Positions 2,287 to 64,000 of a DNA stretch of 64,000 nt are shown piece by piece. The stretch lies in the IMG/VR virus record IMGVR_UViG_3300033550_000001; one strand, written 5' to 3'. The stretch's first letter is position 1, and each line of letters starts with the position of its first letter. Position numbers and translations under genes: made by a program. The notes under the pieces were generated by a model. It had not been told where the DNA came from, ran no database searches, and was given only the letters and a program-made list of their open reading frames with translations. Source of the DNA: an uncultured virus (IMG/VR IMGVR_UViG_3300033550_000001). Its lineage: Duplodnaviria > Heunggongvirae > Uroviricota > Caudoviricetes.

Positions 2287-2357
2287 AGTGGTCCGGGTCG
2301 TTCGGCGATTCACCGGCGGCCCGGTTCACTGACCAAGGAGTCGAGGAAGGCAGGGCC

Positions 2358-2699
2358 ATGGACTACTTCCAGAAGGAAGCCGCCGAGCGCCAGCGGGACA
2401 TCGACGCGGCCCGTCGGTGGGCCGAGGGCGCCGGGAAGAACACCCGCGACGGGTTCCCCGAGTGGTGCGGGAATACCGGTCGGAACGGCGACTACGCGGC
2501 GGCGCACGCCGTGTGGCTGACGTCGCCGGCCCGCATCGAGCGGTGGGCCGAACGCAGCGGCATCTTCGTCGGCAAGGGCTTCGCCCGGTGGTACCTCGGG
2601 GAGGGCCGCACCGACACCTTCGCGGACGCCTACGAGATCTACCGCGCCATGGTGCACGCCGAGGCCGAGGCAGCCCGAGTGCAGCGGACGGAGGCCTGA
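2358..2699 (+). CDS. Hypothetical protein
   Basis: ATG after leader GACCAAGGAG..GAGGAA; high-GC3 codons. Confidence 0.8.
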   Translation: MDYFQKEAAERQRDIDAARRWAEGAGKNTRDGFPEWCGNTGRNGDYAAAHAVWLTSPARIERWAERSGIFVGKGFARWYLGEGRTDTFADAYEIYRAMVHAEAEAARVQRTEA

Positions 2700-2701
2700 C
2701 C

Positions 2702-3397
2702 ATGACGACGACACTGGAAGCCCTGGCCACCGGGGCGAAGCACGACCCGGCGATACTCCTGCCGAACCTGTGGTCCGAGCTGCTGCGCTGCGTCGAGGCC
2801 ATGTGCCCGTGCGGCAACACGGCGCGCGTCGACCGTGGCGGCACGCTGGGCACGCACGAGCCGAAGTCGACGTGGGACATCGACGGCCAGCGCCGTCCGG
2901 CGATCCGGGACGCAACCGGCATCGGGTGGACCTGCCGTTACAGCGGCCGGACCGCCACCCTGGACGCAGCCCTGGAACGCGACAACGTCCTGACCCCGGC
3001 CGAGAAGCACGCACGGGACACCACGGAGCGCAGGCTCCGGGCGGGCATCACGGACACGGCGCCCGAGGGCTACGCACTGCCGAAGCCGGTCGCCGGCCTG
3101 TTCGCGCTCGCCGAGGCCAACGGCTGGACCACGCAGCAGGCGTGGGCGCCGCGCGACGACGGCTTCGCCCTGAATCTCCGGGTGGGCCGGGCGGCCGACG
3201 AGGGCCGGCGCTGGCAGTACGACCTGACGTACTTCGTCGCCCCTGGCGTCGCCCGCCGGACCCAGTTCGGGCTGAGCGTCACCCCGGACCGCCCGGCCCC
3301 GCACGACACCCCGTCCCTCAAGGCCATCCGGGCCGTCGTCGAGGCCATCCGGGCCGTCGTCGAGGCCAACCCGGTACCGGCGGAGGACGCTGCGTGA
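2702..3397 (+). CDS. Hypothetical protein
   Basis: ATG 2 nt after the upstream stop, GGAGG SD. Confidence 0.75.
   Translation: MTTTLEALATGAKHDPAILLPNLWSELLRCVEAMCPCGNTARVDRGGTLGTHEPKSTWDIDGQRRPAIRDATGIGWTCRYSGRTATLDAALERDNVLTPAEKHARDTTERRLRAGITDTAPEGYALPKPVAGLFALAEANGWTTQQAWAPRDDGFALNLRVGRAADEGRRWQYDLTYFVAPGVARRTQFGLSVTPDRPAPHDTPSLKAIRAVVEAIRAVVEANPVPAEDAA
3321..3368 (+). repeat. 21-bp tandem duplication (AIRAVVE x2)
   Basis: AGGCCATCCGGGCCGTCGTCG twice plus a partial third copy. Confidence 0.9.
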
Positions 3398-3615
3398 CAA
3401 CGCGGCTGGCGCACACGCGTATCGCGGCCTCGCCAACCGACTGCACCGCCTGCGCGCGGATGGACCCGTCCCGGGCGTTCTGCGGCCTGTGCCGCGCGAC
3501 CCGGGGCCTGCCCGCCTGCTGGCGGTGCGGCGACAAGCGATGGACCGTGACGAACGACCGATGGGGTCGGTGCCCCTGCGCCACCCCGACCAAGGAAGCG
3601 AGGAACGAGGAATGA
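3394..3615 (+). CDS. Small Cys-rich (Zn-binding) protein
   Basis: GTGA overlap with the upstream gene; three CxxC plus CxC. Confidence 0.6.
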   Translation: MTTRLAHTRIAASPTDCTACARMDPSRAFCGLCRATRGLPACWRCGDKRWTVTNDRWGRCPCATPTKEARNEE

Positions 3616-4235
3616 GCAACGACAAGGGTCACGGCTACGACTGGAGCGACCTGCGCGACAGGCCTGCCCGGGAACTGGCGGTCGGCGACACGTTCGTGTC
3701 CGGCCTGGGCGCGTTCACGGCGTACTTCACGGGCCGGGACGGACGCGTGCGCCCCGCCATGGGCTGCGAGCCGCCCGGCGGCACCGCGTGGACCGTCACG
3801 GCCCGGGACGGCAACGACACCACCTGCCGGGGCCACGACGGCCGTACGGAGTCGCAGGAGATCCCGGACGGCGCCCGCGTGCTGCTGGTCGTCCCGCCCG
3901 AGCCGGTCGGCACCGTGCTGGCGGTCAACTCCCACCGGGCGGCCGACCGGCTGAAGCGGGCGCTGGGGCGCAAGCCGGCCGCGTACTACGACAAGGCGAT
4001 GAGGCGAGGCGGCAAGTTCGTCGTGCTGTACGGCGACGACGTGGCGACGGCGCTGGAGATCACGTCGGTCACCCGGACCCGGTTGAAGCCCGAGGACGTC
4101 GCGCTGTGCCTCAGCAGCCGGACGACGGTGGACGACGACGGCCTGCGCGTCACCTACGACGACTCGGAGCACGCCCGGCGCGAGGCGGACCGTGCGGCCG
4201 GCCGGCGGACCGGGGAAGCGAGGGCCGACGCGTGA
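3612..4235 (+). CDS. Hypothetical protein
   Basis: ATG after CCGACCAAGGAA..GAGGAACGAGGA. Confidence 0.75.
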   Translation: MSNDKGHGYDWSDLRDRPARELAVGDTFVSGLGAFTAYFTGRDGRVRPAMGCEPPGGTAWTVTARDGNDTTCRGHDGRTESQEIPDGARVLLVVPPEPVGTVLAVNSHRAADRLKRALGRKPAAYYDKAMRRGGKFVVLYGDDVATALEITSVTRTRLKPEDVALCLSSRTTVDDDGLRVTYDDSEHARREADRAAGRRTGEARADA

Positions 4236-4615
4236 GCGTCCACCTGGAGTGCGACCGCTGCGGGTTCCAGGAACAGACGTCCAGCGTGATGCTGTTCGCC
4301 GGGACCGTGGGCCCCGGCATCCCGACGGCGCGTCCCGAGCTGCCGGACGGCTGGACACGGTCCCGGCTCCCGGCCGAGGACGGTTCGGCGTGGGACCGGG
4401 AGCTGTGCCCCGGCTGCAAGGCGGAACTGCTGCGGTTCATGGCCGGCGCCCCGGTCGTCGACATCCGGTCGGTGTCGGAGCAGTCGGCTGTCTGCCGTGG
4501 GTGCGGGCACCTCGTCCACCAGGGCACGGAGTGCCCGGCACTCACGATGCCGGACGGGCCGGGCCCCGCGCGCACCTGCGGATGCAAGGCGGAGGGAGTG
4601 GGGACCGATGGCTGA
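4232..4615 (+). CDS. Zn-finger-like hypothetical protein
   Basis: GTGA overlap; CDRC, CPGC, CRGC motifs. Confidence 0.7.
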   Translation: MSVHLECDRCGFQEQTSSVMLFAGTVGPGIPTARPELPDGWTRSRLPAEDGSAWDRELCPGCKAELLRFMAGAPVVDIRSVSEQSAVCRGCGHLVHQGTECPALTMPDGPGPARTCGCKAEGVGTDG

Positions 4616-5069
4616 GCGACGCACGCGGCTGGTCGTGGACATCGTCTGGAACGGGCCGGACGCGCCCCGGCCGGACGAGCACTACTACAGCGACGACGAG
4701 CTGGCCCGGGTGTCCACGGACTGGATCGTGGGCGCGGTCGAGGACCACGACGACTGCCCCCGCGTCACCGTGACCGAGGTGGGCGGAGCGTCGGCGGACC
4801 GGGGCCGGGACAGCGGTGAGGCGCTGACGTCCGTGCGCACCGTGCTGAGCCGGGCCGAGACGGCGCTGGGGGAGCTGGGGCCCGAGGGCACCCGGACGGA
4901 GTTCCCGCCGAGGACAGGCGACCAGGCGCAGGACAACTACCCCCTGCGCAAGGCGGGGAGGTTCGAGGACCCCGACGCCCCGTCCATGCGGCAGGCCCTG
5001 CGGGCCGTCGTCGCACTGCTGGACCCTTGGCGGAAGACCGGCCGGACCAAGCGCTCCACCTGTCACTGA
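4608..5069 (+). CDS. Hypothetical protein
   Basis: Overlapping ATG with SD; followed by a terminator. Confidence 0.7.
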   Translation: MAERRTRLVVDIVWNGPDAPRPDEHYYSDDELARVSTDWIVGAVEDHDDCPRVTVTEVGGASADRGRDSGEALTSVRTVLSRAETALGELGPEGTRTEFPPRTGDQAQDNYPLRKAGRFEDPDAPSMRQALRAVVALLDPWRKTGRTKRSTCH

Positions 5070-5195: not shown

Positions 5196-6023
5196 ATGAC
5201 CACGACCGTCGGGACCGAGCGGGTCCCCCTGGAAGACCTCACACCGTTCCCTGGCAACGCCCGGCGCGGCGACGTGGACGCGATCCTCGAATCGCTGCGC
5301 GCGAACGGGCAGTACAAGCCGCTCACCGTTCGCCGGCACGGCGAGACGCTGACGATCCTCGCCGGGAACCACACGTATCTGGCGCTGCTGCGGCACGAGG
5401 AGTCCGACCGCGAGGACTGCCGGGACTGGGAGCTGGCCAACGACCGCCCGTGCCAACTCTGCGTCAACGTGGAGGCGGACGACCCGACAGCCCTCTCCCA
5501 CCTCATCGAATGCGACGACGCCACCGCCACGCGCATCAACCTGGTGGACAACAAGGCGGCCGACGACGGTTCCTACGACGACGAGGCGCTGGCCGCGCTG
5601 CTCGCCTCGCTGGACGGCGGCCCGGTCGGCACCGGCTACACCGACGAGGAAGCCGACTCACTGCTGGCGAGGTACGAGGAGGAAGAGGTCGTCGAGTACA
5701 CCCGCCCGGCAGTCGCCGAGTACAACGACGACCCCGAGGAGCGGAAGGCCCGGGTGGACCGCCTCGGTGGCGAGAACAGCCAGCCGTACGAGTCGCGCGG
5801 TGTGCGGGACATCTTCCTCGCCATGCCCAACGCCGAGGCCGACGAGCTGGGCCGCTGCATCATGGCGCTGCGCGAGCACTTCGGCGCGATGACGCAGAGC
5901 GAGGTCGTGCTGCGGGCGGCCCGGGTGGCCGTCGCGGTCATGGACGGCGCGGACGCGGGACTGACCCTCGCGGACTGCCTGAGCCGGGGGGAAGCCGTCT
6001 ACAACCCCGGGGCCGAGGAGTGA
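5196..6023 (+). CDS. ParB/Srx-like N-terminal domain protein
   Basis: LTPFPGNARRGD, GQYKPL, ILAGNH, DNK motifs. Confidence 0.85.
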   Translation: MTTTVGTERVPLEDLTPFPGNARRGDVDAILESLRANGQYKPLTVRRHGETLTILAGNHTYLALLRHEESDREDCRDWELANDRPCQLCVNVEADDPTALSHLIECDDATATRINLVDNKAADDGSYDDEALAALLASLDGGPVGTGYTDEEADSLLARYEEEEVVEYTRPAVAEYNDDPEERKARVDRLGGENSQPYESRGVRDIFLAMPNAEADELGRCIMALREHFGAMTQSEVVLRAARVAVAVMDGADAGLTLADCLSRGEAVYNPGAEE

Positions 6024-7102
6024 GCGACACACTGACGGCCGGTCTCGACTTCCGGCTACCGCAGTACCGGCGGGAGGTGTTCCTGCGGTTCTACGAGTGG
6101 TCGGTGCGTCACCGCTCGTTCCCTGGGGGAGTGCACTACGCGCTGCCGCACCTTGCCGACGCACTCGACTGGGACACCGAGCAACGATTCTGGGCGGCGT
6201 TCCTCAACGCCAACACGCAGAACCCTGTCACCACGCTGCTGCTCATGCAGGCCGCATCGCGCCCCGGCGACGCGGACGGGGCCGTGGAGTTCTGGCGGGG
6301 GCACTACCGCGAGCTGGAGTGGGACACCGACCGCCGGTACCACAAGGCCCGGTTCGCGGACGCGGTGGACGGGTATCGGCGGCTGACCGGCCCGGGGCCG
6401 GACGCACAGGCCCGGTACTTCCGGCTGCCGCACGAGTGGGGCGCGTGGTGGGACGCCGCCGCCGCGATACCGACCATGGGCCGGCTGTCCACCTGGAGCT
6501 ACCTGGAATACCTGCGCATCCTGGAGTGCGGAGCCCCGGACGCTGACACGCTGCTGCTCACGGACATCCCCGGCTCCCGCAGCCACCGCAACGGCCTCGC
6601 CCTCGTCGCCGGCCGGGACGAGTGGATCGCTGACAAGCAGCTCGGGGACCCCGCGTTCGGCTACACCCCGGACGTGCTCAGCGAACTGGCGTCCGTCGGC
6701 TACGGTTTGCTGGCCGAGGCGCGACGCCGGGTCCCAGGGGACCGCACGGTCGGCTATCTGTCGCTGGAGTCGGCACTGTGCACGTACAAGAGCTGGCACA
6801 AACCGAACCGTCGCTACCCCGGCGTCTACAACGACATGCTGCATGACCGGCTGGTGCGTGCGGAGAACCGGTTCGGCCGGCGGTTCGGCGTCATCTGGGA
6901 CGCCCGCCGAGAGGCGCTGCCCGCCCGGCTGCGGCTGGAGGACAACCCCGGGGACCCCGGCTGCGTGCCGGTCAAACAGAACTGGTACCGGACCACCGGT
7001 CAGGTCATCGGCATGGCGGACGACTGGCCTTGCTTCACCAACGGTTTCGACCGGTTGGTACGGGACGGGCTGCTCGGCCAGAGGGAGCGTGCGTGGATCT
7101 GA
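6020..7102 (+). CDS. Amino acid:DNA transferase (aGPT-Pplase2 family, HhH fold)
   Basis: DTDRRYHK, MGRLSTWSYLEYL, SRSHRNGL, LESALCTYKS..RYPG motifs; operon context. Confidence 0.75.
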   Translation: MSDTLTAGLDFRLPQYRREVFLRFYEWSVRHRSFPGGVHYALPHLADALDWDTEQRFWAAFLNANTQNPVTTLLLMQAASRPGDADGAVEFWRGHYRELEWDTDRRYHKARFADAVDGYRRLTGPGPDAQARYFRLPHEWGAWWDAAAAIPTMGRLSTWSYLEYLRILECGAPDADTLLLTDIPGSRSHRNGLALVAGRDEWIADKQLGDPAFGYTPDVLSELASVGYGLLAEARRRVPGDRTVGYLSLESALCTYKSWHKPNRRYPGVYNDMLHDRLVRAENRFGRRFGVIWDARREALPARLRLEDNPGDPGCVPVKQNWYRTTGQVIGMADDWPCFTNGFDRLVRDGLLGQRERAWI

Positions 7103-7962
7103 ACTCCTGGCTCAGCCCGGTGGAGAACCGGGGCGGCCGTCTCTACAAGCGGGAAGACCTCGCCGCGCTGCCTGTCGGCGTCAACGGCTCCAAGCTGCGC
7201 GCCTGCGAGCACCTGATCGGCCGGGCCGCCCGCGCCGGCGCCAAGCGGGTCATCTCCGCCGCCTCGGTGCTCTCCCCGCAGAGCGCCATGGCCGCCGTCC
7301 TCGCACGGCGCCACGGCCTCGGCTGCACGGTCGTCGTCGGCGGCACCAAACCCACCACAGCCATCCGGCACCCGTCCATCCGCATGGCCGTGGACCACGG
7401 GGCGGGCCTGGAGTTCGCGGCCGTCGACTACAACCCGGCGCTTCAGTCCTACGCGCGCAGGCTCGCCGCCACCGACCCCGCCGCGTACTGGCTCCAGTAC
7501 GGCATCACCACCCCACCCGCCGCCACCCGCGAGGAGCTGCTGGACTTCCACGCGGTCGCCGCCCGGCAGACGGAGAACCTGCCGGACGGGGTGGGGACGC
7601 TGGTGGTGCCGTTCGGGTCCGGCAACACGGCGGCCGGTGTGCTCATGGGCTTGGCCCAGCGATCGTCGGCCGACCGCCCCCGAAAGACGGTGCTGGTGGG
7701 CATCGGCCCGGACCGGAGGGCCTGGCTGGCAGACCGGTTCGCCGCCATGGGTCTGGAACTCCCGGCGTACGAGCACCTGGACCTGCACGGCTCCGGATAC
7801 GCCTCCTACGGCGACAAGATGCCCGGCACCGCCGACGGCATCCGCCTGCACCCCACCTACGAGGGCAAGGTGGTGCGCTACCTGAACGAGAAGCGACCCG
7901 ACTGGTGGACCCGCCGGGACGGCACGACGTGCCTGTGGATCGTGGGAGGACCCATCTCGTGA
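7093..7962 (+). CDS. PLP-dependent enzyme (fold II, ACC deaminase/D-Cys desulfhydrase-like)
   Basis: KREDL..NGSKLR PLP lysine motif, VPFGSGNT, LHPTYEGK. Confidence 0.85.
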   Translation: MDLNSWLSPVENRGGRLYKREDLAALPVGVNGSKLRACEHLIGRAARAGAKRVISAASVLSPQSAMAAVLARRHGLGCTVVVGGTKPTTAIRHPSIRMAVDHGAGLEFAAVDYNPALQSYARRLAATDPAAYWLQYGITTPPAATREELLDFHAVAARQTENLPDGVGTLVVPFGSGNTAAGVLMGLAQRSSADRPRKTVLVGIGPDRRAWLADRFAAMGLELPAYEHLDLHGSGYASYGDKMPGTADGIRLHPTYEGKVVRYLNEKRPDWWTRRDGTTCLWIVGGPIS

Positions 7963-8534
7963 TACGTGGCCTGCTGTACGTCATCGGCCCGCCGGGGGTG
8001 GGCAAGTCCACGCTTGTCCGGGAGCTGCGCACCGGCTGGGACACAGAGGTGGACCGGCACCACGCCGTCCCCCACACCCGTCTCAACCACCCCGCCACCG
8101 GCCGCACCGCCGGACTGGAACTCGGGGTGCCCCGCGAGGACTTCCCCGGCACCGACGCCCTGGCCATGGACATAGGGCCCCGGGCGCTCCAGTTTCTGTC
8201 GGCCAGCTACACGCCCTTCGCCGTGGGGGAGGGCGCGCGGCTGGCCACCCGGCCTTTCCTCGGCGGACTGGCGCAGCAGGGCGTGGCGGTCACGGTGGTG
8301 GAGCTGATGGCGTCACCGGCGCTGCTGGATCAGCGGTGGCGCGAGCGCGGGGCGCGACAGAACCCGTCCTGGCGCAAGGGTGCGGCCACCCGGGCGTCCC
8401 GCCTGGCCGACTGGGCCGCCGGTGCGCCGGGCGTCCGGCTGCGGTGCATCGACGTGGAGCAGTACAGCCCGGCGGAGATGGCGGCCGAGGTGCGCGACGT
8501 CTTCCCGCCGATAACCCCGGAGGTGAACCGTTGA
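7959..8534 (+). CDS. P-loop nucleotide kinase, likely 5-hydroxymethylpyrimidine DNA kinase
   Basis: GPPGVGKST, FPGTDALAM, GEGARL, RGARQNPSW motifs; next to the transferase. Confidence 0.75.
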   Translation: MIRGLLYVIGPPGVGKSTLVRELRTGWDTEVDRHHAVPHTRLNHPATGRTAGLELGVPREDFPGTDALAMDIGPRALQFLSASYTPFAVGEGARLATRPFLGGLAQQGVAVTVVELMASPALLDQRWRERGARQNPSWRKGAATRASRLADWAAGAPGVRLRCIDVEQYSPAEMAAEVRDVFPPITPEVNR

Positions 8535-9433
8535 TCTCTATTCGTCTGCGCTCCCGGATTGGCAAGCAGGAGCTTGAGGAAAAAGCTGGCAAGGTACTCG
8601 GGGACGACGCCTACAACGTGAAGCTGACAGGGCCAACCCGGGTGTTCCTGCCCAACGGGCAACCGCTGTGCGTCTACCTACCCGGCGCGATGAAGGACGT
8701 CGTCACCGAGGAGCAGTACGCGATCCTGCACAGCCTGCGACGGACCACAACAGGGAACCGGGGCCCCGCCTCGGGCTCCAAGGCCGTTCGTGCGGGCGCG
8801 CAGAAACGGCAGTACTTCAAGGCGGTCAGCTCCAGCATCCTCGGGGCGTTCGACCCCGGGGGCACCTTCAGGTTCTGCCGCCTGACGGCCTGGACCGGCA
8901 AGAACCTCCCGGAGTGGGAGGCGCTGCACCCGGCGTTGCAAGCCGTAGCCGGGGCGATGCAGGAACACGTCCCCGAGCGCTACGCGGCGCAGATGGAGGA
9001 GATCGAGCGGACGCACCCGGACTGGGTGGTGCCCGGTACCCCGTTCACGACGGTCACCGTCAACAACACCTACCCAACCGGTGTGCACACCGACAAGGGC
9101 GACCTGGACAAGGGGTTCAGCACGATCTTCGCGCTCCGTCGGGGCACGTACACCGGAGGGACGTTCGTGTTCCCGGAGTTCCGGGTGGGCGTGGACCTTC
9201 AGGACGGCGACCTGATCCTGATGGACGCCCATCAGTGGCACGGCAACACGGCCATCGTCTGCGCCTGCGGTGAACGACGGACGGCCTACTGCGAGGACTG
9301 CGGGGCGGAACGCATCTCGGTCGTCTCGTACATGCGCACCGCGATGACCCGGTGCGGTAGCGAGGCCGAGGAGATCGACCGGGCCCGGGAGTACCGCGAG
9401 CGCACCAAGGGCGTCCTGCGCGAGACCCGTTAA
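8531..9433 (+). CDS. TET/JBP-family 2OG-Fe(II) dioxygenase
   Basis: CRLTAW, TPFTTVTVN, HTDKGD (HxD), distal HGN, RISVVSYMR; TTG start coupled to the upstream stop. Confidence 0.85.
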   Translation: MISIRLRSRIGKQELEEKAGKVLGDDAYNVKLTGPTRVFLPNGQPLCVYLPGAMKDVVTEEQYAILHSLRRTTTGNRGPASGSKAVRAGAQKRQYFKAVSSSILGAFDPGGTFRFCRLTAWTGKNLPEWEALHPALQAVAGAMQEHVPERYAAQMEEIERTHPDWVVPGTPFTTVTVNNTYPTGVHTDKGDLDKGFSTIFALRRGTYTGGTFVFPEFRVGVDLQDGDLILMDAHQWHGNTAIVCACGERRTAYCEDCGAERISVVSYMRTAMTRCGSEAEEIDRAREYRERTKGVLRETR

Positions 9434-10398: not shown

Positions 10399-10586
10399 CT
10401 CGGGTTCGGGAGTAGCCCGCCGCCCTCGTGGGTACGACACAGCAGACGGCGGTCTGACGCCGCCTCAGCTCTGGAACCGCCCGGCGCCGCACCGGGCGGT
10501 TCCCGCGTTTTCCAGGCCGTTCGGCGATTCCCCGGTCCGTGGCTACCCTGCCGCCACGATCAAAGACCACGGAACAAGGGGTGTCC

Positions 10587-11666: not shown

Positions 11667-11705
11667 TGGTTTAGCAAAACCATGGAACGGGGATTTAACT
11701 AAATG
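11666..11705. promoter_or_regulatory. Two degenerate copies of the promoter palindrome
   Basis: ATGGTTTAGCAAAACCAT and GATTTAACTAAATG upstream of the regulator. Confidence 0.55.
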
Positions 11706-11816
11706 AGTGTCCCGGCCAGACCCGGCGGAACGACCCCGGGCCGTCGCCGGTCGACAAGGACCCCGGGCCAGTGGACGTGGCCCGGGGTCCAACCCAATCT
11801 ACGAGAGGGGCGTCCC

Positions 11817-12635
11817 GTGGATGCAGCACTTCAGCCCATCGTCCTGACGGAGCGCCAGCGCCGGCTGCTGTGGCTGCTGTCCGTCGGCCGCCCCCGCGAA
11901 GTAATCGCACGGGAGACGGGCGTCACGTCCGTCGGGGTCAAGAGTTCCTGCAATCGCATTTACCGTCAGCTCGGGGCGTCCACGGCCGCACAGGCCGTAC
12001 GCAACGGTCTGCTGGCCGGGCACATCGGCCCGTACGAGGATTGCGGGACGCTCGCAGCCTACCGCCGCCACATCAAGCGGGACGAGGCGATCTGCGCGGC
12101 GTGCAAACGCGGCAACCGCGAGCGGGCCGAGACCGAGGCCGCGTTGCGCAACCGCCGGGTGACCCTGTCCGAGGCCGAGACACGGCTGTTGCGCGCGTTC
12201 GACGCCGGCCGCACGGTGGCGCAGATCTGCACCCGTTGGGGCGTCAGTCAGAAGGTCGTCAAGGAACTCACCGCGTCCGCCTATGCGGCCCTCGGGGTGA
12301 GCCACCTGCCTCAGACGGTGCGCCGTGAGGCCGCGCTGCGCGAGGCCGCCGCCCGGGGTCTGCTCCGCCTGCGGATGCCGGAACCCCGCGTCGTCCGAAC
12401 CAACCCGGTCACCCTCACGGACACGCAGGTGAGAGTACTCGTAGCGCTAGAGGACGGGGCGTCCCTTTCCGAGGCGGCACGTGAGCTGAAGATGCATCCG
12501 GGGACCCTGTCCACGCGGCTGAGCGAGGCGTACCGGCGCCTGGACGTGGCGTGGATGGACAAGGCCGACCGCCGCCCCGCCGCCCTGCGCAAGGCTCGTG
12601 AGCACGGCCTGCTGCCCGAGCCGGCCACCACCTGA
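11817..12635 (+). CDS. Transcription regulator with three LuxR-like HTH repeats and a Cys/His motif
   Basis: LTERQ.., LSEAE.., LTDTQ.. HTH repeats; CGTLAAYRRH..CAAC. Confidence 0.75.
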   Translation: MDAALQPIVLTERQRRLLWLLSVGRPREVIARETGVTSVGVKSSCNRIYRQLGASTAAQAVRNGLLAGHIGPYEDCGTLAAYRRHIKRDEAICAACKRGNRERAETEAALRNRRVTLSEAETRLLRAFDAGRTVAQICTRWGVSQKVVKELTASAYAALGVSHLPQTVRREAALREAAARGLLRLRMPEPRVVRTNPVTLTDTQVRVLVALEDGASLSEAARELKMHPGTLSTRLSEAYRRLDVAWMDKADRRPAALRKAREHGLLPEPATT

Positions 12636-17242: not shown

Positions 17243-17494
17243 ATGGACGTCACGAGAAACCCCGACGGGAGCCACACACCGTCGTACGACCCCGAGTGGC
17301 CGCCACACCTGGAGGTCCAGTGGACCGCAGGGGTCGCAGCCTGTGAGACCGGACTGCGTATCCACGTCGTCGACCTGGACGACGACAAGTACGCCGTGCA
17401 CGTGGGCGGCAGCGGCCAGAGCCCGATGGACCGGGCGAGCGTGTACGCGTACCTGGACGGGGTCGTCGCCGGTGCGCGGGAGGCACGGCGTTGA
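17243..17494 (+). CDS. Hypothetical protein
   Basis: ORF with good codon usage, coupled to the next gene. Confidence 0.6.
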   Translation: MDVTRNPDGSHTPSYDPEWPPHLEVQWTAGVAACETGLRIHVVDLDDDKYAVHVGGSGQSPMDRASVYAYLDGVVAGAREARR

Positions 17495-17859
17495 CCAAGG
17501 AACCCCGCACCCCTGCCCAGCTCGCCGACGACGCCGCCGAGGCAGTCCGCGCCCTGGCCCACGCCACCCTGTCCCGTCCGGCCGCCGGGTGGGAGTACCC
17601 GAGCGACGCGTACAGCACCGTGGCGAACCTGGCGATCCTGGCGAACCGGCTCACGCAGGCCGTTGGCCAGTTGGAGGGGTTCGTCGGTGAGATGGAGGAC
17701 GACGGCCGTCTGCGCAGCGACCACGGGCCGGACGATCTGGAGGTCCGGCTGCTCGCCTTTCACAGCGCCATGGCCGAGGCCATCCAGAAGACTCGCGCGC
17801 TGTACGCCTCCCTGGACCGCGCGCACCAGGCCCTCGGCTCCGTCGGTTCCCCGGAGTGA
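17491..17859 (+). CDS. Hypothetical helical protein
   Basis: TTGA overlap, GGAGG SD. Confidence 0.7.
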   Translation: MTKEPRTPAQLADDAAEAVRALAHATLSRPAAGWEYPSDAYSTVANLAILANRLTQAVGQLEGFVGEMEDDGRLRSDHGPDDLEVRLLAFHSAMAEAIQKTRALYASLDRAHQALGSVGSPE

Positions 17860-18445: not shown

Positions 18446-18473
18446 CAACGACCTCGGGATGATTTAATCAAAC
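18436..18473 (+). promoter_or_regulatory. Conserved promoter/palindrome P2
   Basis: TTGTGA-N17-TTTAAT; TGATTTAATCAAACC. Confidence 0.8.
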
Positions 18474-18502
18474 CAAGGAACCCGACCAAGGAAGGAACGG
18501 CC

Positions 18503-18682: not shown

Positions 18683-18752
18683 CCCGCGCGGCCAGGGAGC
18701 CCCGGAGCCACACGGCCCGGGGCTCCACAGTTCAGACCAAGGAATGATGACC

Positions 18753-20281: not shown

Positions 20282-20398
20282 GATCGTCACGGGCGATGAG
20301 CCTACCGGGGCCCGTCGACCGGCTCCTGCAAAACACACGTTTTGCGCTTCGCCCAGAGCGATTCTGCGGCTGCCGGGTTCCGTGGCATCCTCCGCTCC

Positions 20399-20439
20399 GG
20401 GTTGTCCTTCGGCCCGCGAGTATGATTTAATCAATCCAT
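20399..20439 (+). promoter_or_regulatory. Conserved promoter/palindrome P3
   Basis: TTGTCC-N18-TTTAAT; TATGATTTAATCAATCCAT. Confidence 0.85.
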
Positions 20440-20484
20440 CGGACGGGGTGCCGTCCGACAGACCAAGGAAAGAAGGAACCGGCC

Positions 20485-21619: not shown

Positions 21620-21664
21620 GGGACGGGGTACCGGACCGACAGACCAAGGAAGAAGGAACCCGCC

Positions 21665-48167: not shown

Positions 48168-48200
48168 CCGGGCAGTGGACCAGGGAACGGAGACCGAGGA

Positions 48201-51115: not shown

Positions 51116-51274
51116 GGCGGGCCCCCTGTTCCTTGGTCAGGTGATGCGGTGGTGCGAGCGCCCCGTCCAGTGGGGTGCGGACGGGGCGCTGTGACGCCGG
51201 GCCCGGTGGGGGAGGGGCCACGGCGTACCGGCTCGGAGTGTGCCGGCGGTGGTGCGTATCGCCGAACGGGCCGG

Positions 51275-51718: not shown

Positions 51719-51850
51719 GAGTCCTGCTTTCCTTGGTCGGGGGTGCGGGGAGTGCTCCCGGCCGGTCACGATCCGGCACTTCCGGGTTGAGGGCCCGGCG
51801 GACATCCGTTATCCCACGGGAGCGGGTTGGGGCCTAACGGCCCCGGGCGG

Positions 51851-52135: not shown

Positions 52136-52178
52136 GGTCGGTTCCTTCTTCCGTAGTCCTCGGCCGGCGTGTCCGGCT

Positions 52179-52220
52179 GATGAATTAATTAAACCATAAC
52201 GCCCCGGGGAAGACAACCCC
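52179..52220 (-). promoter_or_regulatory. Conserved promoter/palindrome P5
   Basis: TTGTCT-N17-TTTAAT; TATGGTTTAATTAATTCATC. Confidence 0.85.
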
Positions 52221-52447: not shown

Positions 52448-52611
52448 CAGTTCCTCGATTCCTTGGTCAGTGCCTGGCCGATGACGCGGGCGGCCTCGCC
52501 GTACAGCGGCTCGTCCACCGGGAGCCGCAGCAGCCGGCCGGCCGCCTTCGCGGCCTCGCCGTACAGCGGTTGGTCGACGGGACGCATCAGCAGGGTGCGC
52601 GGGTCGGTCAT
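52447..52611 (-). CDS. 54-aa protein with an internal repeat (absent from the ORF track)
   Basis: MTDPRTLLMRPVDQPLYGEAAKAAGRLLRLPVDEPLYGEAARV..; follows P6; TGATG coupling. Confidence 0.7.
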   Translation of the reverse strand: MTDPRTLLMRPVDQPLYGEAAKAAGRLLRLPVDEPLYGEAARVIGQALTKESRN

Positions 52612-52653
52612 CGGGTCCTCGTTCCTTGGTCCGCCGGGCCGGCTGTCCGGCCC

Positions 52654-52696
52654 GATGAATTGATTAAATCATAAGGGCCCCGAGGTCGACAACCCC
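52654..52696 (-). promoter_or_regulatory. Conserved promoter/palindrome P6
   Basis: TTGTCG-N18-TTTAAT; TATGATTTAATCAATTCATC. Confidence 0.85.
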
Positions 52697-54285: not shown

Positions 54286-54318
54286 GTCTTCCTCGTTCCC
54301 TGGTCGGTTCCGGTTCGA

Positions 54319-54594
54319 TCAGTTGTGCGCGGCGGCGCGGTGCTGTTCGTCCACGCCGATGCGGGAGACGGCCAGCAGGGCCTCGCCCTCGGGGCAGTCC
54401 GCCCGGTCGTCGCGCCGGCAGTCGGCGCAGCCGACGACGTGGAAGCGGTAGTCGGAGAACGCGGCGTGGTACGGCATGGACTCCACCAGCCGCTGCTCGG
54501 GGACCTTCAACGCGGTCAGGTCCGTGTACCCCTCCAGCTCCGCCGCCTCGCTCATGGCGTCCGGCTCCCATTCGGCCCATGTCGTCTGCCGCAT
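54319..54594 (-). CDS. Hypothetical protein
   Basis: First gene after P7; HVVGCADC..C. Confidence 0.7.
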   Translation of the reverse strand: MRQTTWAEWEPDAMSEAAELEGYTDLTALKVPEQRLVESMPYHAAFSDYRFHVVGCADCRRDDRADCPEGEALLAVSRIGVDEQHRAAAHN

Positions 54595-54638
54595 GTCGGT
54601 TCCTCGTTCCGTGGTCTGCCGGTCCGGCCGTCCGTCCC

Positions 54639-54680
54639 GGTGACTTAATTAAATCATAGTCGCCCGTCCGGGACAACACC
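54639..54680 (-). promoter_or_regulatory. Conserved promoter/palindrome P7
   Basis: TTGTCC-N17-TTTAAT; TATGATTTAATTAAGTCA. Confidence 0.85.
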
Positions 54681-54758
54681 CGCGACCCTTCCGGCGGAGC
54701 CCGCCCGGCGCTCGCTACGCTCATCCCGGACCACCGACCGAGGAACCGGGAGACAGGC

Positions 54759-56475: not shown

Positions 56476-57144
56476 CTACCCCTCGCCCGCGAGACGCTTC
56501 AGCGACTCCAGCGCCGCCTCGTCGGCGTCGGTGAATTCGTCACCGCGCGAGAACATCTGCTCCTGCGCGAGGCCCACGGCGTAGCGCAGGATCGCGCGCT
56601 CGTCGTCGGACAGGAGCGACGCGGCGTGGTCCCGGGCCAGCCCCGCCAGCCAGTCGGGCAGCCAGCCGATGTCCTCGGGCGCTGCGTCCGCCTCGCCGGC
56701 GATGGCTCGCAGTTGGGCCGTGGCCCATCGGGCGCCGTCACAGAAGTCGGCCGTGTCCTCGGCGGTCTGCGGCACGTCCTCCGCGTCGATCCGGTCGGCC
56801 GCGCCCCGCAGGACGTCGGGCAGCGTCTGCCGGGAAGGCATCTCCCCGTCCCAGCCGTCGTCCCGCGCGGGCTTGCCGTCGGCCAGCCACTTCACGTAGT
56901 CGGCCAGGATCGAGTCCTCAGCCCCGTCCTGGTCCCACCGGTCCGGGTCGGCCATCGTGGCCTGGATGCCGTCTCGCAGCCGCCGGTACGCCTGCGCGTC
57001 CAGCACGAGGCTGGAGGGGTTCAGGTCGCTGCCCAGGATCTCCCGGCGCGCTTCCTCGTGGTAGTCGTCCAGCTTCCGGGCCGCGTCTTCCGGGCTGATG
57101 CGGGCCCCGGTCAACCGGGCGTAGACCCACTCTCGTGCGCTCAT
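56476..57144 (-). CDS. Hypothetical protein
   Basis: CGACCAGGGAA..GAGGAA leader. Confidence 0.75.
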   Translation of the reverse strand: MSAREWVYARLTGARISPEDAARKLDDYHEEARREILGSDLNPSSLVLDAQAYRRLRDGIQATMADPDRWDQDGAEDSILADYVKWLADGKPARDDGWDGEMPSRQTLPDVLRGAADRIDAEDVPQTAEDTADFCDGARWATAQLRAIAGEADAAPEDIGWLPDWLAGLARDHAASLLSDDERAILRYAVGLAQEQMFSRGDEFTDADEAALESLKRLAGEG

Positions 57145-57180
57145 GCTTCCTCACTTCCCTGGTCGTCGGTGGTCTGTCGG

Positions 57181-57279
57181 TGGTGGGCCTGTCCGGACTC
57201 GAACCGGAGTCTCCCGGAGCGCGGGAACCGACCAAGGAACGCGCTTCACGGGTGCACTGCCTGACTGTGCTACAGCCCC
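57181..57279 (-). ncRNA. tRNA-like RNA with the anticodon arm replaced by an extended stem and 16-nt loop
   Basis: GGGGCTG TA GCAC AGTCAGGCA GTGC A CCCG TGA AGCGCG [TTCCTTGGTCGGTTCC] CGCGCT C CGGG AGAC TCCGG TTCGAGT CCGGA CAGGCCC A CCA: acceptor stem, D arm, T arm and encoded CCA all present. Confidence 0.88.
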
Positions 57280-57343
57280 GTGTGCCGCAGGCCCGTGAGC
57301 CTGCGAGCGGTGCCGGGATCGCGGCTCCCGGCCGGCCGTCGTG

Positions 57344-57595
57344 CTACGCCTCGCCGACCCAGTGAGCCCGCGCACCCTTCAGAATGTCCTCGTTGGTCGT
57401 CTCGCCGTCCTCGCTCCAGTCGTAGAAGACTCCGTCCAGCCACTTGGCGAATGCGTCGGCGGAGACGGCGGGGAGACCACCCCCGTGGGGGTCCTCGGCC
57501 CACTCACGGATGTCGTACGTCGACAGGGCTTTCACACCGGGCCGGTCGTCGCCGTCCTCCATCTCGGCCAGGGCCTTCAGCAGGTTCTTGTTCAT
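57344..57595 (-). CDS. Hypothetical acidic protein
   Basis: GAGGAACGAC-ATG leader. Confidence 0.7.
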   Translation of the reverse strand: MNKNLLKALAEMEDGDDRPGVKALSTYDIREWAEDPHGGGLPAVSADAFAKWLDGVFYDWSEDGETTNEDILKGARAHWVGEA

Positions 57596-58212: not shown

Positions 58213-58279
58213 GGTCGGTTCCTCGTTTCCGTGATCGGTGGGGCCGGGGCGACGGTGCCCCGGCCGTCGTGCGCCAGGT

Positions 58280-58867
58280 CTACGGGGTGGTGCGCTGGGC
58301 GATGAACTCCGCCGCGTTGGACGCGCCGAACATGCCGCGCGAGCCGACGGGGCCGACGGCCGACCACACGCCGCACGGCTCGCCCGTGACCGCGTGCGGC
58401 TCCGGGCGCAGCGTCCAGTCGATGTCGTTCGTGGTCACGGTCACCGTGCCGTCCGGCCGCGCGGAGGGGTCCAGCCCCTTGGCCCGGAGGGCCGCGAGGA
58501 GCGGGGCCGACAGTTCGGGCGCGGCCGGGGTCACCGGCTCATCGGCGGACAGGTCGTCCTCGTCGCAGGTGCCGCACAGCGTGTACCCGCCGTCGGTGCG
58601 GCCGAGTTCGGTGGCCCACTGGTCGCGGCACACGGCGCAGCGCTGCGGCTCCACCACGGTCTCGCCGGTCGCACGGTCGGTGACCCGGATCTCCAGCTCT
58701 CCGCCCCGCGCGTTCGCGGCGCGCAGCGTGTCGAGCATCGCGGCCTCGGCCGCGCCCAGGGTCCACTTCGCGTTTCGGACCGGCTTGTCGCCGTCCCACG
58801 CGTACACGACGGCGTACGGCATGGACTGGCCCTTGCTGTGGCCTCCGCCCTTGCGGGGTGCGCTCAT
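58280..58867 (-). CDS. Hypothetical protein
   Basis: First gene after P8; GGAACCGACC-ATG leader; two CxxC. Confidence 0.75.
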   Translation of the reverse strand: MSAPRKGGGHSKGQSMPYAVVYAWDGDKPVRNAKWTLGAAEAAMLDTLRAANARGGELEIRVTDRATGETVVEPQRCAVCRDQWATELGRTDGGYTLCGTCDEDDLSADEPVTPAAPELSAPLLAALRAKGLDPSARPDGTVTVTTNDIDWTLRPEPHAVTGEPCGVWSAVGPVGSRGMFGASNAAEFIAQRTTP

Positions 58868-58902
58868 GGTCGGTTCCTCGTTCCCGGCCGGTCCACCCGG
58901 CC

Positions 58903-58944
58903 ATTGATTTAATTAAACCACAGGGCCCCGGGACGCACAACCCC
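58903..58944 (-). promoter_or_regulatory. Conserved promoter/palindrome P8
   Basis: TTGTGC-N17-TTTAAT; TGGTTTAATTAAATCA. Confidence 0.85.
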
Positions 58945-59852: not shown

Positions 59853-59884
59853 GAGTCGGTTCCTCGTTCCTTGGTCGGTGGTCG

Positions 59885-60100: not shown

Positions 60101-60177
60101 GGTCGTTATCCCTCCTGCCCCGCCCCTGGCGCCGGATCATACGGGCGGGGGCGGGAATTGCGTTCCTGGTTCCTTGG

Positions 60178-60390
60178 TCAGTGAGCGGTGGTGCAGAACT
60201 CCCGGCGGAACCGGGAGACGGTGTAGCCGGTGCGGGGTGGCTCGGCGCCGGTCGTGTCGATGACGTACCAGCGCTTCGGGCCTCGGCCGCGCGTCACCTC
60301 GGTGTCGTCGTTGTACGGCTCCAGCCGGTAACGGCCGTCGCTGGTGGCGTACACGCTGCTGCCGAGGTGACGCAGGGTCCTAACAGCCAT
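60178..60390 (-). CDS. Small hypothetical protein
   Basis: GAGG SD; ATG start. Confidence 0.6.
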   Translation of the reverse strand: MAVRTLRHLGSSVYATSDGRYRLEPYNDDTEVTRGRGPKRWYVIDTTGAEPPRTGYTVSRFRREFCTTAH

Positions 60391-60950: not shown

Positions 60951-60997
60951 GGTCGGTTCCCCGTTCCCTGGTCTGCGGTCCGCCCGGCCAGCGCCCC

Positions 60998-61039
60998 GAT
61001 GAATTAATTAAACCATAGGGTGCCGGGGAAGACAACCCC
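60998..61039 (-). promoter_or_regulatory. Conserved promoter/palindrome P9
   Basis: TTGTCT-N17-TTTAAT; TATGGTTTAATTAATTCATC. Confidence 0.85.
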
Positions 61040-61186: not shown

Positions 61187-62194
61187 CTACGCCGCCAGCA
61201 CCTCGCCGCGCTCGCCGACACCGGACGCGGCGAGGACGGCCGCGAGCGCCAGGGCCTTCGGAACGGCGTTGCCGACCTGGAGGTGCCGCTGGCCGGACCT
61301 GCCGAGGAAGACGAGGTCCGGCCGGAACCCCTGGAGCGCCGCGCACTCGGCCAGGGACGGCCGCAGGTGTTTGCACGGCTCGGCCGGGTCCCGCTCCCCG
61401 CCCTCCGCGCACTGCACGCACAGCGGCGCCCGGTCCCGCCACGCGTCAGTGCCGATGACCTTCCGCATGGCCTGCCGGGAGCCGTTGCCGAACGGCTCCG
61501 CGCCCCCGGTGTAGACCCCGCCGCCGGTCACCGCCGGGGACGGGCGGCGGGTGTACCCCCACCCGACGACGTCCGCCATGGCGACCAGCGGCGGCTGTCC
61601 CGGCCCGCCGTGCGTCGACGCGGGCAGTGACACCTCCCGCACCCGGGACGCCAGCAGGAGGGCGCGAGGCCGCTTCTGCCCAGCGCCGTGCCGCTCGGCG
61701 TGCAGGACGCCGGCGGCCGTGCTGTACCCCCAGTCGCCCAGAATCTCCGCGTAGTGCCCCCACACCGGCAGCACCGACGGCACCTGCTCCAGGACGACCC
61801 ACGCCGGGCGCAGGTCGTACAGCCAGCGCATCGGCTCGGCGGTCAGGATGGACCGGGCGTCCAGGCACCCCGCAGCGTGCGCGGCCCGGGTGTCCCGGCC
61901 CCGGGCCAGACTGTCGATGGCCTCGTGAACCAGCGGCAGGTCGGTGAGGCCCAGCCTCCGCCCGGACTTGCCGAACGGCGGGCAGGGCGGCCCGCCCACC
62001 AGGCCGCCCGTGCCTGCGAACGGCTCGGTGGGGTGCCGGGTGACGTCGCACTCGATGGTCCAGTGCCCGGCGGCCCGTCGGGTGGCGCAGGCGGCCGGGT
62101 CCATTTCCAGCCCCGGGCCGTGCAGGCCGAGGGGCCGCAGCACCTCGCTGAAGCCGACGCCCGCGAATATCTCGGTAACCTGCGCGCCGTTCAT
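61187..62194 (-). CDS. DNA cytosine-C5 methyltransferase
   Basis: Motif I FAG, IV GPPCPPF, VI EQV, VIII QKRPR, X QVGNAVP. Confidence 0.9.
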   Translation of the reverse strand: MNGAQVTEIFAGVGFSEVLRPLGLHGPGLEMDPAACATRRAAGHWTIECDVTRHPTEPFAGTGGLVGGPPCPPFGKSGRRLGLTDLPLVHEAIDSLARGRDTRAAHAAGCLDARSILTAEPMRWLYDLRPAWVVLEQVPSVLPVWGHYAEILGDWGYSTAAGVLHAERHGAGQKRPRALLLASRVREVSLPASTHGGPGQPPLVAMADVVGWGYTRRPSPAVTGGGVYTGGAEPFGNGSRQAMRKVIGTDAWRDRAPLCVQCAEGGERDPAEPCKHLRPSLAECAALQGFRPDLVFLGRSGQRHLQVGNAVPKALALAAVLAASGVGERGEVLAA

Positions 62195-62703: not shown

Positions 62704-62704
62704 G

Positions 62705-63166: not shown

Positions 63167-63211
63167 GGGGCCCTACTTTCCTTGGTCTTTGGTCTCCGAC
63201 CTAACGGCCGT

Positions 63212-63253
63212 TATGACTTAATTAAACCATGAAGCCCCGGGGCGGACAACCCC
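63212..63253 (-). promoter_or_regulatory. Conserved promoter/palindrome P10
   Basis: TTGTCC-N17-TTTAAT; ATGGTTTAATTAAGTCAT. Confidence 0.85.
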
Positions 63254-63271
63254 GGGGCACAGGTTCTGCGG

Positions 63272-63427
63272 TCAGTCCTCGTCCGGGACGTGCACGCGGA
63301 ACGTGTCGCTGGCCGGGTCCATCCGCACCTCGGCCTGTCCGCCGTTGCTGCGGATCTCCTGCGCCTTCGCCTCGGCCGGCTTGACGCCGCGCGGGTGGCC
63401 CGCCGGCGACGTGAACACCACTGCCAT
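63272..63427 (-). CDS. 51-aa hypothetical protein (absent from the ORF track)
   Basis: CCGACCAAGGAATGAGGAAGATC-ATG leader. Confidence 0.65.
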   Translation of the reverse strand: MAVVFTSPAGHPRGVKPAEAKAQEIRSNGGQAEVRMDPASDTFRVHVPDED

Positions 63428-63515
63428 GATCTTCCTCATTCCTTGGTCGGGCGCTCGGACTGAGCTGCCTCACAGGGGGCGCGGACGGCTCACCGGCCGC
63501 GCCCCCGGGCGGCGT

Positions 63516-63794
63516 TCAGCGCGCGGAGGCGTTCCCCGGGAACGTCGGCACCCCGGCGGCCTCGTTCCACGCCGCGAAGTCCTCGCCGGGCATCCCGTTC
63601 GACAAGGACCCCAGCGCCGTGGCGGCAGCGCCGGCGAGGGTCGCGTGGACCAGGGCGGCGGTCAGGTCCGCCGTACGCCGGGCGATCCGCTCCTCTCCGG
63701 ACATGTCCGCCTTCCAGCCGGTGTCCGCGTTCTCCCACGTCTCGGCCTGGCGCTGAAACCGTTCGGCCTCCAGGTAGTGCTCGGGTCCGGTCAT
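63516..63794 (-). CDS. Hypothetical protein
   Basis: GAGGAACCGAC leader; MTGPEHYLEAE..VHATLA pattern. Confidence 0.75.
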   Translation of the reverse strand: MTGPEHYLEAERFQRQAETWENADTGWKADMSGEERIARRTADLTAALVHATLAGAAATALGSLSNGMPGEDFAAWNEAAGVPTFPGNASAR

Positions 63795-64000
63795 CGTGTC
63801 GGTTCCTCTCGTGTTCGGTGGGCCGGGGCCGCCGGTCGACGGCCCCGGGTCTGTCTGTCGGTCAGGCGCTGACCAGTTCGCGGGTCTTCGCCGGGCGCAC
63901 CGTCTGGCGGACGGTCACCGGGGCGCCGCCGGCCAGGACCATGAGCACCACGGCCGCCCTGTACTCCGCCTTGCGCGGCCTGTAGTTCCGCAGCAGGACG

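Follow-up and report, generated by a model that had tools for sequence, protein, structure and literature searches.

A bipartite start-associated sequence in an uncultured Caudoviricetes phage and a conserved tRNA-like RNA whose loop is its complement

The uncultured virus IMGVR_UViG_3300033550_000001 (Caudoviricetes) places a short bipartite leader sequence, referred to here as the tag, before the start codons of about 35 non-structural genes, and it encodes a 99-nt tRNA-like RNA that displays the complement of this tag in its apical loop. We analysed a 64,000-nt stretch of its DNA (the window), which corresponds to bases 10525-74524 on the minus strand of an IMG/VR virus contig of 76,514 nt with a completeness rating of 93%. 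A preliminary description of the window had noted the tag and proposed that it is the target of the tRNA-like RNA. Our analysis established that the tag is real and strongly non-random. Combining the tag, the conservation of the RNA and the predicted pairing between them, we consider it somewhat better than an even chance that a tRNA-scaffolded antisense RNA pairs at or next to the ribosome site of the early mRNAs and blocks initiation.

Results

A bipartite tag precedes the starts of non-structural genes

Alignment of the 50 nt upstream of every predicted start gave the full leader consensus GACCAAGGAA-cGA-GGAACCGACC-ATG. The gene starts are codon-bias predictions made here and not curated annotation, of a quality sufficient for counting. 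Conservation of the leader is highest in the first half; the middle is a GAGGAA ribosome site, and only some genes keep the tail CCGACC. The ribosome site of tagged leaders is of the GAGGAAC type and is often extended to GGAACCGACC up to the ATG. Among the leaders with an exact first half, 25 of 26 have an ATG start. The preliminary description had listed 24 starts preceded by one or both halves, and the upstream alignment and the site table bear this out for all 24.

The enrichment of the tag is strong. In the comparison with shuffled controls proposed in the preliminary description, GACCAVGGAA was found 21 times exactly in the window, while 100 shuffles gave a mean of 0.23 and a largest value of 1. 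The whole contig contains 31 exact copies, compared with a single one for the reversed control pattern, and 10 further tag sites are located past the right end of the window. The second half, GGAACCGACC, has six exact matches in the window. With up to one mismatch it has 17 matches against 10.8 expected, which cannot be told from chance, and it is therefore informative only in its exact or near-exact form. When AT-rich words are set aside, the most over-represented 8-mers of this genome include the tag-derived words CCAAGGAA and ACCAAGGA.

The tag is also constrained in position and strand. In the contig, 29 of the 31 exact first halves are followed by a same-strand start within 30 nt; the other two are an orphan at 60170-60179 and the copy carried by the RNA gene. 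Across six related genomes this is true of 177 of 221 exact first halves, measured against predicted starts, and the gap is mostly 10-14 nt. Allowing up to one mismatch yielded 285 sites in these genomes, with 213 upstream of starts, 45 intragenic in the sense orientation, 27 intergenic and none intragenic in the antisense orientation. The six genomes contain 40 exact copies of GGAACCGACC; 30 sit 0-6 nt before a start, six are the loops of the RNA and four lie elsewhere. Genomes of this phage group carry 31-48 tag copies each. The statement that the tag is always on the sense strand holds throughout, except for the plus-strand copy at 57224-57239, which lies inside the minus-strand tRNA-like gene. 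The motif has a predicted unpaired probability of 0.61, compared with 0.45 at the same positions of other leaders.

The late block (22576-47938) lacks the tag. No exact first half lies within 22,000-48,000, in agreement with the earlier claim for portal, capsid and tail genes, and the genes of the block use GGAGG-type ribosome sites. The tag is rare in host DNA as well. One Streptomyces genome has 36 copies in its 92-kb phage contig and 6 in the remaining ~8.8 Mb; a second has 33 in the phage contig and 12 outside it. Equal abundance inside coding sequences, on the antisense strand or in the host, named earlier as grounds for doubting the tag, was not seen: none of the 285 sites is intragenic and antisense, and the host copies number 6 and 12.

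A conserved tRNA-like RNA displays the complement of the tag

The RNA gene occupies 57181-57279 on the minus strand. It has acceptor, D and T arms, an encoded 3' CCA and a lengthened anticodon arm. A local scan with the Rfam tRNA model (RF00005) gave 43.4 bits (E 3e-08; gathering score 29), with a 32-nt insert replacing nine model positions at the top of the anticodon arm. ARAGORN called no tRNA at 57181-57279, and an Rfam scan of the whole window at the gathering threshold missed the RNA. The cloverleaf of a tRNA is present, with acceptor, D and T arms; the 5-bp anticodon stem with a 7-nt, anticodon-bearing loop is not. Judged by these features, the molecule is tRNA-like and not a decoding tRNA.

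In the minimum free energy fold, 16 nt (UUCCUUGGUCGGUUCC; 57224-57239, minus strand) form an apical loop on a GCGCG/CGCGC stem (57240-57244 paired with 57219-57223). The fold energy itself is unremarkable (z = -0.95). The loop is antisense to the leader motif: it is the exact reverse complement of GGAACCGACC fused to AAGGAA. Read on the plus strand, 57224-57239 is GGAACCGACCAAGGAA, in which both halves of the tag are fused via a shared GACC, giving motif matches at 57224-57233 and 57230-57239.

A covariance model (R1) was built from the window copy, which it scores at 124 bits, and one relative. All motif-bearing genomes that were searched with it gave a homologue, at 62-130 bits, and three relatives lacking the motif gave none. 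RNA and motif occur together in six of six motif-bearing genomes, and the RNA occurs in none of the three motif-free relatives. Nine distinct homologues, one of them from a named Streptomyces assembly, were compared. In these, 98.6% of cells are paired, and five pairs have changed on both sides, across the acceptor, D, anticodon-base and T stems; none of 500 shuffles reached as high a count. The loop core CCUUGGUCGGUUCC and the stem that displays it are invariant in all nine. Variation in the loop, which measures 16-19 nt, is confined to its first two or three and last two bases. CCA is encoded in seven of the nine. The pairs changed on both sides, together with the invariant loop, indicate that selection keeps the tRNA shape and, separately, the exact loop sequence.

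The RNA is codirectional with its neighbours. Upstream of it, at a distance of three genes, is an AT-rich element (58901-58923), and no site resembling a promoter or a terminator was found between the two. A tag-led gene begins 37 nt downstream of the RNA. The same layout is seen at the phage tRNA-Glu (CUC; 51752-51823, minus strand), where 13 nt separate the tRNA from the downstream tag that precedes start 51718. Both RNAs would be cut from an early polycistronic RNA by tRNA-processing enzymes. Given this layout, tRNA processing may also create the 5' ends of tagged messages.

Other identities for the RNA were considered and rejected. A search of 57100-57400 at E up to 10 matched YrlA only at E 1.6 and permuted transfer-messenger RNA (tmRNA) only at E 2.2, which does not support a Y RNA or a tmRNA. 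Removal of the insert as an intron would leave no 7-nt anticodon loop; to our knowledge, bacteria lack a splicing enzyme for such short tRNA inserts. The acidic protein encoded downstream of the RNA (56476-57144) was dismissed as a partner because it is conserved only partly and is not always adjacent. In an exact 16-mer search of viral contigs, 37 of 40 stretches were chance matches in unrelated coding DNA. In a pattern scan of genome contigs allowing any loop, 118 of the 120 matches listed were chance GC-rich matches and two were true. Gordonia phage Ghobes (KX557278) has an unannotated tRNA-like element at ~39290-39365, in the gap between genes 47 and 48, that matches the T-arm end of the RNA studied here. 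The Ghobes element has an acceptor and a T arm, without a normal D or anticodon arm.

The loop is predicted to pair with a large subset of leaders

The predicted duplex with the loop amounts to -16.8 kcal/mol for the first half, -16.5 kcal/mol for its G variant, -12.6 kcal/mol for its C variant and -18.3 kcal/mol for the second half. The first half pairs with the 3' tail of the host 16S rRNA at only -5.2 kcal/mol, and no stretch of the host 16S rRNA is complementary to the 23-nt leader over 8 nt or more. These two results rule out the motif as a stronger Shine-Dalgarno sequence or a 16S-complementary enhancer.

Leaders were ranked against the loop as the preliminary description had suggested. 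The ranking took in 100 of the 102 predicted leaders, as two at contig ends were too short. At a cut-off of -14 kcal/mol it did not discriminate (62 of 100 leaders, compared with a shuffled mean of 28.8 and with 31% of internal windows), and stricter cut-offs were used for this reason. At -19.5 kcal/mol or below the ranking did separate the leaders: 32 of 100 pair with the loop, while 300 shuffled loops gave a mean of 2.0 and a maximum of 18. The 32 comprise none of the 25 late-block leaders and 32 of the 75 others, again consistent with a late block that lacks the tag. The best-ranked leader is that of the DnaN-like gene (54296-54311), with 16 contiguous loop pairs including one G-U. The two tag halves are not complementary to each other, and the RNA would thus not act by opening a leader hairpin. 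Outside the motif, C is mildly enriched at positions -1 and -2 (0.41 and 0.48, compared with a background of 0.32) in a site set that includes chance coding matches.

A hairpin in Cluster K mycobacteriophages has a similar design

Start-associated sequences (SAS) of Cluster K mycobacteriophages were described in 2011, with the partner left open as a protein or an RNA in the sections on these repeats (PMC3203893). Their function was still called unknown in 2024-2025 (PMC3203893, PMC7302621, PMC11373665, PMC12699233). We found no paper linking SAS to an antisense or tRNA-like RNA among open-licence PMC papers and bioRxiv.

Adephagia (JF704105) has 16 forward copies of the SAS and one reverse copy at 58682-58694. 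The reverse copy is located in a 432-nt unannotated gap between genes 92 and 93, where it lies in the apical loop of a long hairpin (58640-58720). The hairpin consists of GCGCGG-CCUCCUAUCCC-CGCGC on top of a lower stem with about twelve more pairs, and its predicted energy is -39.9 kcal/mol (z = -2.96). Apart from lacking a tRNA body, it shares its GCGCG/CGCGC clamp-and-loop design with the tRNA-like RNA. Conservation of the region extends over 168 Cluster K records. A consensus fold of 11 of these keeps both stems, and several lower-stem pairs have changed on both sides. According to the transcription section of the Adephagia RNA-seq report, late transcription appears to begin between genes 92 and 93 (PMC11373665), and the anti-SAS loop would therefore head the late transcript. 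A signal that shuts off early genes would be sensibly placed there. The SAS GGGATAGGAGCCC is kept at 13-17 sites in all 10 further Cluster K phages checked. A perfect anti-SAS loop is confined to Adephagia, Anaya and Peanam; that of LilPharaoh is nearly perfect.

The phage, its relatives and its host

The window has a G+C content of 71.7%. Pfam matches among its proteins include a family-A DNA polymerase, a tyrosine integrase (19190-20287, minus strand), a portal protein (25502-27340), WhiB, a holin, an amidase, a terminase with a Hint domain, a tape-measure-like SLT protein, a DnaN-like clamp and a ParA-like ATPase. This content, with integrase and ParA-like genes, identifies a temperate actinophage. 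No close isolated phage was found in 50,697 phage records, the best portal match being at most 37% identical. Streptomyces phage TurkishDelight has 450 nt in common with the window and contains no motif. Relatives exist as separate ~92-kb contigs in two Streptomyces assemblies, G011:C28 (92,184 nt) and G012:C551 (92,743 nt). Since two Streptomyces assemblies contain a relative as a stand-alone contig of this length, the host is taken to be Streptomyces. The stand-alone, phage-length contigs and the ParA-like gene pair suggest that the phage may be a plasmid-like prophage, although it also encodes an integrase.

Several other features of the window were noted. The Hint domain of the large terminase (14012-16213) lies at residues 149-183 and suggests an intein. 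Genes for an amino acid:DNA transferase (ADDT), a pyridoxal phosphate (PLP)-dependent enzyme, a P-loop nucleotide kinase 3 and a Tet/JBP oxygenase lie side by side at 6020-9430, and a C5 cytosine methylase is encoded in the right arm (61187-62191); together they are likely a DNA hypermodification set. Among the relatives, G009 alone also has the kinase and the oxygenase of this set. Position 44036 is T in the window and G in the contig, and the T creates a TGA stop in the window copy of the open reading frame 43637-44095.

Tag sites and AT-rich modules in the window

On the plus strand, first halves are found at 3588-3597 (before start 3612), 18484-18493 (before 18503) and 18735-18744 (before 18744/18753). 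The second of these is preceded by a degenerate second copy, AACCAAGGAA. The variant GACCAAGGAG at 2331-2340 precedes start 2358, the C variant at 10565-10574 precedes start 10581/10587, and the G variant at 48178-48187 precedes start 48201. A first half is combined with GGAACCGGCC at 20461-20484 (before 20485) and with GGAACCCGCC at 21642-21664 (before 21665). The variant GACCGAGGAA(CC) at 54736-54745 lies before the ParA-like gene that starts at 54759. An atypical first half at 17493-17502, missing from the earlier list, overlaps a TTG start (17491) as well as the end of the gene before it.

On the minus strand, first halves lie at 51129-51138 (before start 51115), 51729-51738 (before 51718 and 13 nt after tRNA-Glu), 52459-52468 (before 52447), 52622-52631 (before 52611), 63178-63187 (before 63166) and 63439-63448 (before 63427). 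The G variant at 57155-57164 precedes start 57144 and is 16 nt after the tRNA-like RNA. The second half GGAACCGACC immediately precedes start 52135 (52136-52145), and second halves are likewise immediately before starts 58212 (58213-58222) and 58867 (58868-58877); the variant GGAACCGACA at 63797-63806 lies before start 63794. Both halves are present at 59854-59876 (before 59852) and 60951-60973 (before 60950), and a C-variant first half is joined to GGAACCGAC at 54594-54616 (before 54594). The site of the DnaN-like gene (54296-54311, start 54285) is the fused form GGAACCGACCAGGGAA. The orphan first half at 60170-60179, also absent from the earlier list, is 81 nt before the predicted start at 60088.

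Despite its 72% G+C, this genome has repeated copies of an AT-rich ~20-mer that reads about TATGGTTTAATTAATTCATC in the sense orientation; the relative G003 has it too. Copies are located at 2269-2290, 11691-11710, 18458-18477, 20418-20440, 21599-21621, 52177-52201, 52654-52677, 54640-54662, 58901-58923, 60997-61019 and 63210-63234. In the right arm they usually follow a GC hairpin containing GACAACCCCGGGG and precede a tagged leader by 10-25 nt. By sequence, these elements look like terminator-plus-early-promoter or operator modules.

Discussion

A model for the tRNA-like RNA and its limits

The proposal that the tag is the target of the tRNA-like RNA is supported by the exact complement in the loop, by the 32 of 100 strongly pairing leaders and by the co-occurrence of RNA and motif (six of six compared with none of three). 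The part that does not fit is the mismatch of the C variant and the unpaired AA at the end of the first half. In the model we favour, the bipartite leader would serve as a private tag of early and non-structural mRNAs and as the shared target of one phage-encoded antisense RNA. The RNA would be cut from the early operon by tRNA-processing enzymes and, being tRNA-like, should be stable and accumulate. Its loop could pair with either half of the tag. The second half would cover the ribosome site and spacer and the first half would lie within the ribosome footprint, and pairing at either would block initiation. The accumulating RNA would turn down translation of the early set with a delay, and late mRNAs with GGAGG-type sites would escape. 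RNA made by a prophage may in addition damp leaky early expression in the lysogen, or the expression of a superinfecting relative. We infer that the RNA is transcribed and processed and that it pairs with the leaders in vivo. Repression as the direction of the effect is the least secure step.

A number of observations weigh against this model. At start-associated sites with a single substitution at position 6, the base is C in 28 of 40, G in 8 and T in 4. A C at this position faces a loop U, and the C-U mismatch costs ~4 kcal/mol. GACCAVGG continues mostly with AA in all six genomes, including four whose loops lack the matching UU, begin with AUCC, AGCC, GACC or AACC, and cannot pair with it. 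Both halves need the GGUC of the loop, so that one loop cannot hold both at once. The co-occurrence of RNA and motif is confounded with relatedness. Motif and loop are both invariant in every relative found and never vary together, and their co-occurrence may for this reason reflect shared ancestry only. A sequencing-run search found the stretch in 11 soil-metagenome DNA runs, from which it may originate, and in no RNA run. A more distant relative, G007 (88,895 nt, 54% portal identity), has CGACCACYGACCAAGGAG at the ribosome-site position of ~7 genes, and the covariance-model search did not find the tRNA-like RNA in it. Given G007, part of the tag may be older than the RNA. In Cluster K, four phages (Ekdilam, Amgine, Unicorn and Krueger) have a CU-rich, imperfect loop (-14 to -19 kcal/mol, compared with -21.7 kcal/mol); the loop of Keshu is unrelated, and Yuna and SirPhilip have lost it by deletion. 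As the SAS persists where the loop has diverged or been lost, the anti-SAS loop is not what keeps the Cluster K SAS conserved, and it is there at most a regulator that uses the SAS.

In G007, examples of the CGACCACYGACCAAGGAG sites are 15148-15163, 16738, 17548 and 81317-81332, and GACCACTGA occurs 16 times.

Alternative explanations

Several of these observations would be accommodated if the tag were read first by the ribosome, as a double weak Shine-Dalgarno or standby site on AAGGA and AGGA, or by a phage RNA-binding protein, with the RNA as a secondary user or unrelated to the conservation of the tag. We regard this as a possible explanation, although a clearly less probable one. Loop pairing does not account for the final AA, nor for the degeneracy of position 6, which is A, C or G and rarely T. 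AGGAA is found in both halves at ribosome-site distances, GACCAAGGAG serves as the ribosome site itself in G007, which lacks the RNA, and Cluster K phages keep the SAS without a matching loop. The authors of the Cluster K work left a protein or an RNA partner open (PMC3203893) and later suggested a DUF3310 protein, in the passages that deal with the SAS (PMC11373665). However, the weak pairing of the first half with the 16S tail (-5.2 kcal/mol) and the lack of any other 16S complement of 8 nt or more speak against the ribosome as the reader. As for a protein that binds the GGA motifs, the alternative offered in the preliminary description, or another RNA-binding protein, no CsrA, S1, KH, Hfq or DUF3310 family was found in 99 of the 102 predicted phage proteins; the CsrA search of these 99, at E up to 0.001-0.01, covered phage proteins only. 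The sole RNA-related match, a RapZ C-terminal domain, is missing from the complete motif-bearing genomes G003 and G004. It would also remain unexplained why an exact 16-nt antisense copy of the tag occupies the loop of a conserved, structured RNA in nine of nine genomes.

The RapZ match is a 133-residue protein consisting of the C-terminal domain only (E 2.7e-26), an RNA-binding adaptor domain. It is encoded beyond the window, at 70356-70757 (minus strand) on the window scale, and is also found in G006 and G009. A search for a protein partner by phyletic pattern was uninformative: several proteins are common to all motif-bearing genomes and absent from G007 and G008, which are simply more distant.

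The RNA could instead act positively, with the loop pairing to the leader and the tRNA body recruiting or positioning the ribosome or protecting the message. In favour of this, the position of the RNA within an early operon would have it transcribed along with its targets, at least six genes of this genome have a second half that runs right up to the ATG, and the tRNA shape is selected, with CCA encoded in seven of nine homologues. Pairing over the ribosome site by antisense RNAs normally blocks initiation, the non-complementary tag halves provide no inhibitory leader hairpin to open, and the tRNA shape is explained equally by processing and stability. An activating role thus appears improbable. 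We give similarly little weight to a trans-acting initiation adaptor, in which the tRNA body would dock on the ribosome or be handled as a tRNA and a 14-nt 'super-anticodon' would read the 10 nt of the message that immediately precede the AUG. If such an adaptor existed, tagged mRNAs would have a private initiation route independent of the host anti-Shine-Dalgarno sequence, and the start-associated sequences of actinophages would in general be docking sites for phage-made RNAs.

That the tag sites act as DNA is about as improbable as an activating role. Cluster A stoperators are double-stranded DNA sites at which the immunity repressor binds and blocks transcription; tight spacing to start codons is not part of their definition. 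By analogy, the tag sites would be oriented operator or stoperator-type sites for a phage DNA-binding protein, such as the LuxR-type protein with two helix-turn-helix (HTH) motifs encoded at 11817-12635. The phage is temperate, with integrase and ParA-like genes, and the HTH protein occurs in each of the five motif-bearing relatives and in neither of the two compared that lack the motif; this phyletic pattern, however, is common to many proteins, as the motif-free relatives are simply more distant. The tag sites resemble stoperators (mentioned in PMC3203893) in being asymmetric and oriented with transcription, but they are fused with the ribosome site and tightly spaced to the start (10-14 nt for the first half, 0-6 nt for the second), which indicates the message and not DNA, and a DNA site would have no reason to occupy the apical loop of a conserved RNA hairpin.

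Implications of the proposed pairing

Pairing of the loop with the tag, if real, would mean that a single tRNA-shaped RNA controls the translation of ~35 genes as a phage-wide post-transcriptional switch. It would also provide a natural 'tRNA scaffold' and an orthogonal leader/RNA pair for gene control in Streptomyces. Our study offers a concrete and testable partner for the still-unexplained SAS, a conserved RNA with a loop that mirrors the tag. The Adephagia hairpin is a second test case in a tractable laboratory system, and Cluster K warns that the RNA cannot alone explain the conservation of the tag.

Comparison with known systems

The preliminary description had likened the tag to the Cluster K SAS while noting a different motif, and both parts of this comparison agree with our data. 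Like the SAS of Cluster K and of Cluster EF Microbacterium phages, as characterized in the SAS sections of the published reports, the tag is a short asymmetric repeat in one orientation beside starts that are almost always ATG; it belongs to non-structural genes and is rare in the host. Repeat number, position and orientation, gene class and host rarity all agree. The published consensus does not: it is GGGATAGGAGCCC in Cluster K and GGGAAAGGACCCC in Cluster EF, and GACCAAGGAA / GGAACCGACC here. The tag is bipartite with its best-conserved half 10-14 nt upstream of the start, whereas the Cluster K SAS is at the ribosome site, at a reported 3-7 nt, and it has 31-48 copies per genome compared with 10-19 in the published SAS phages. 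Phages of subcluster K1 also have one reverse SAS copy, shown here to lie in a hairpin loop; the antisense copy of Adephagia is carried on a plain hairpin and the one described here on a tRNA body. We classify the tag as a start-associated sequence that is new in its sequence type and in its bipartite layout.

Among antisense RNAs, the closest parallels are C4 of phages P1 and P7 and the CI RNA of satellite P4. They pair near the ribosome site or leader of an mRNA of their own phage and shut off its genes. Like the RNA proposed here, they are small, phage-encoded antisense RNAs, cut by RNase P from a longer transcript. C4 is listed as an RNase P substrate in PMC11143913, and the tRNA shape makes RNase P cleavage likely for the tRNA-like RNA as well. 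C4 and CI control one operon via two sites, whereas the RNA described here would address ~35 leaders, has a full cloverleaf and belongs to an actinomycete host. The C4 family (RF01695) gave no match at E up to 10 within 57100-57400, where only tRNA, YrlA and permuted tmRNA were listed, and this Rfam test places the tRNA-like RNA outside the C4 family.

A second group of RNAs comprises 6C/B11 of actinobacteria and RsaE and RNAIII of staphylococci, in which pyrimidine-rich hairpin loops pair with purine-rich ribosome sites without Hfq. They are host-encoded, have generic G-rich targets and lack a tRNA body, whereas the loop described here matches a private 14-16-nt tag. The architecture of the tRNA-like RNA is the same as that of the engineered 'tRNA scaffold', in which the acceptor, D and T arms are kept and the anticodon arm is replaced by the RNA to be displayed, resulting in correct processing and stability. 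The scaffold is man-made, and the RNA of this phage would be a natural case of the same design.

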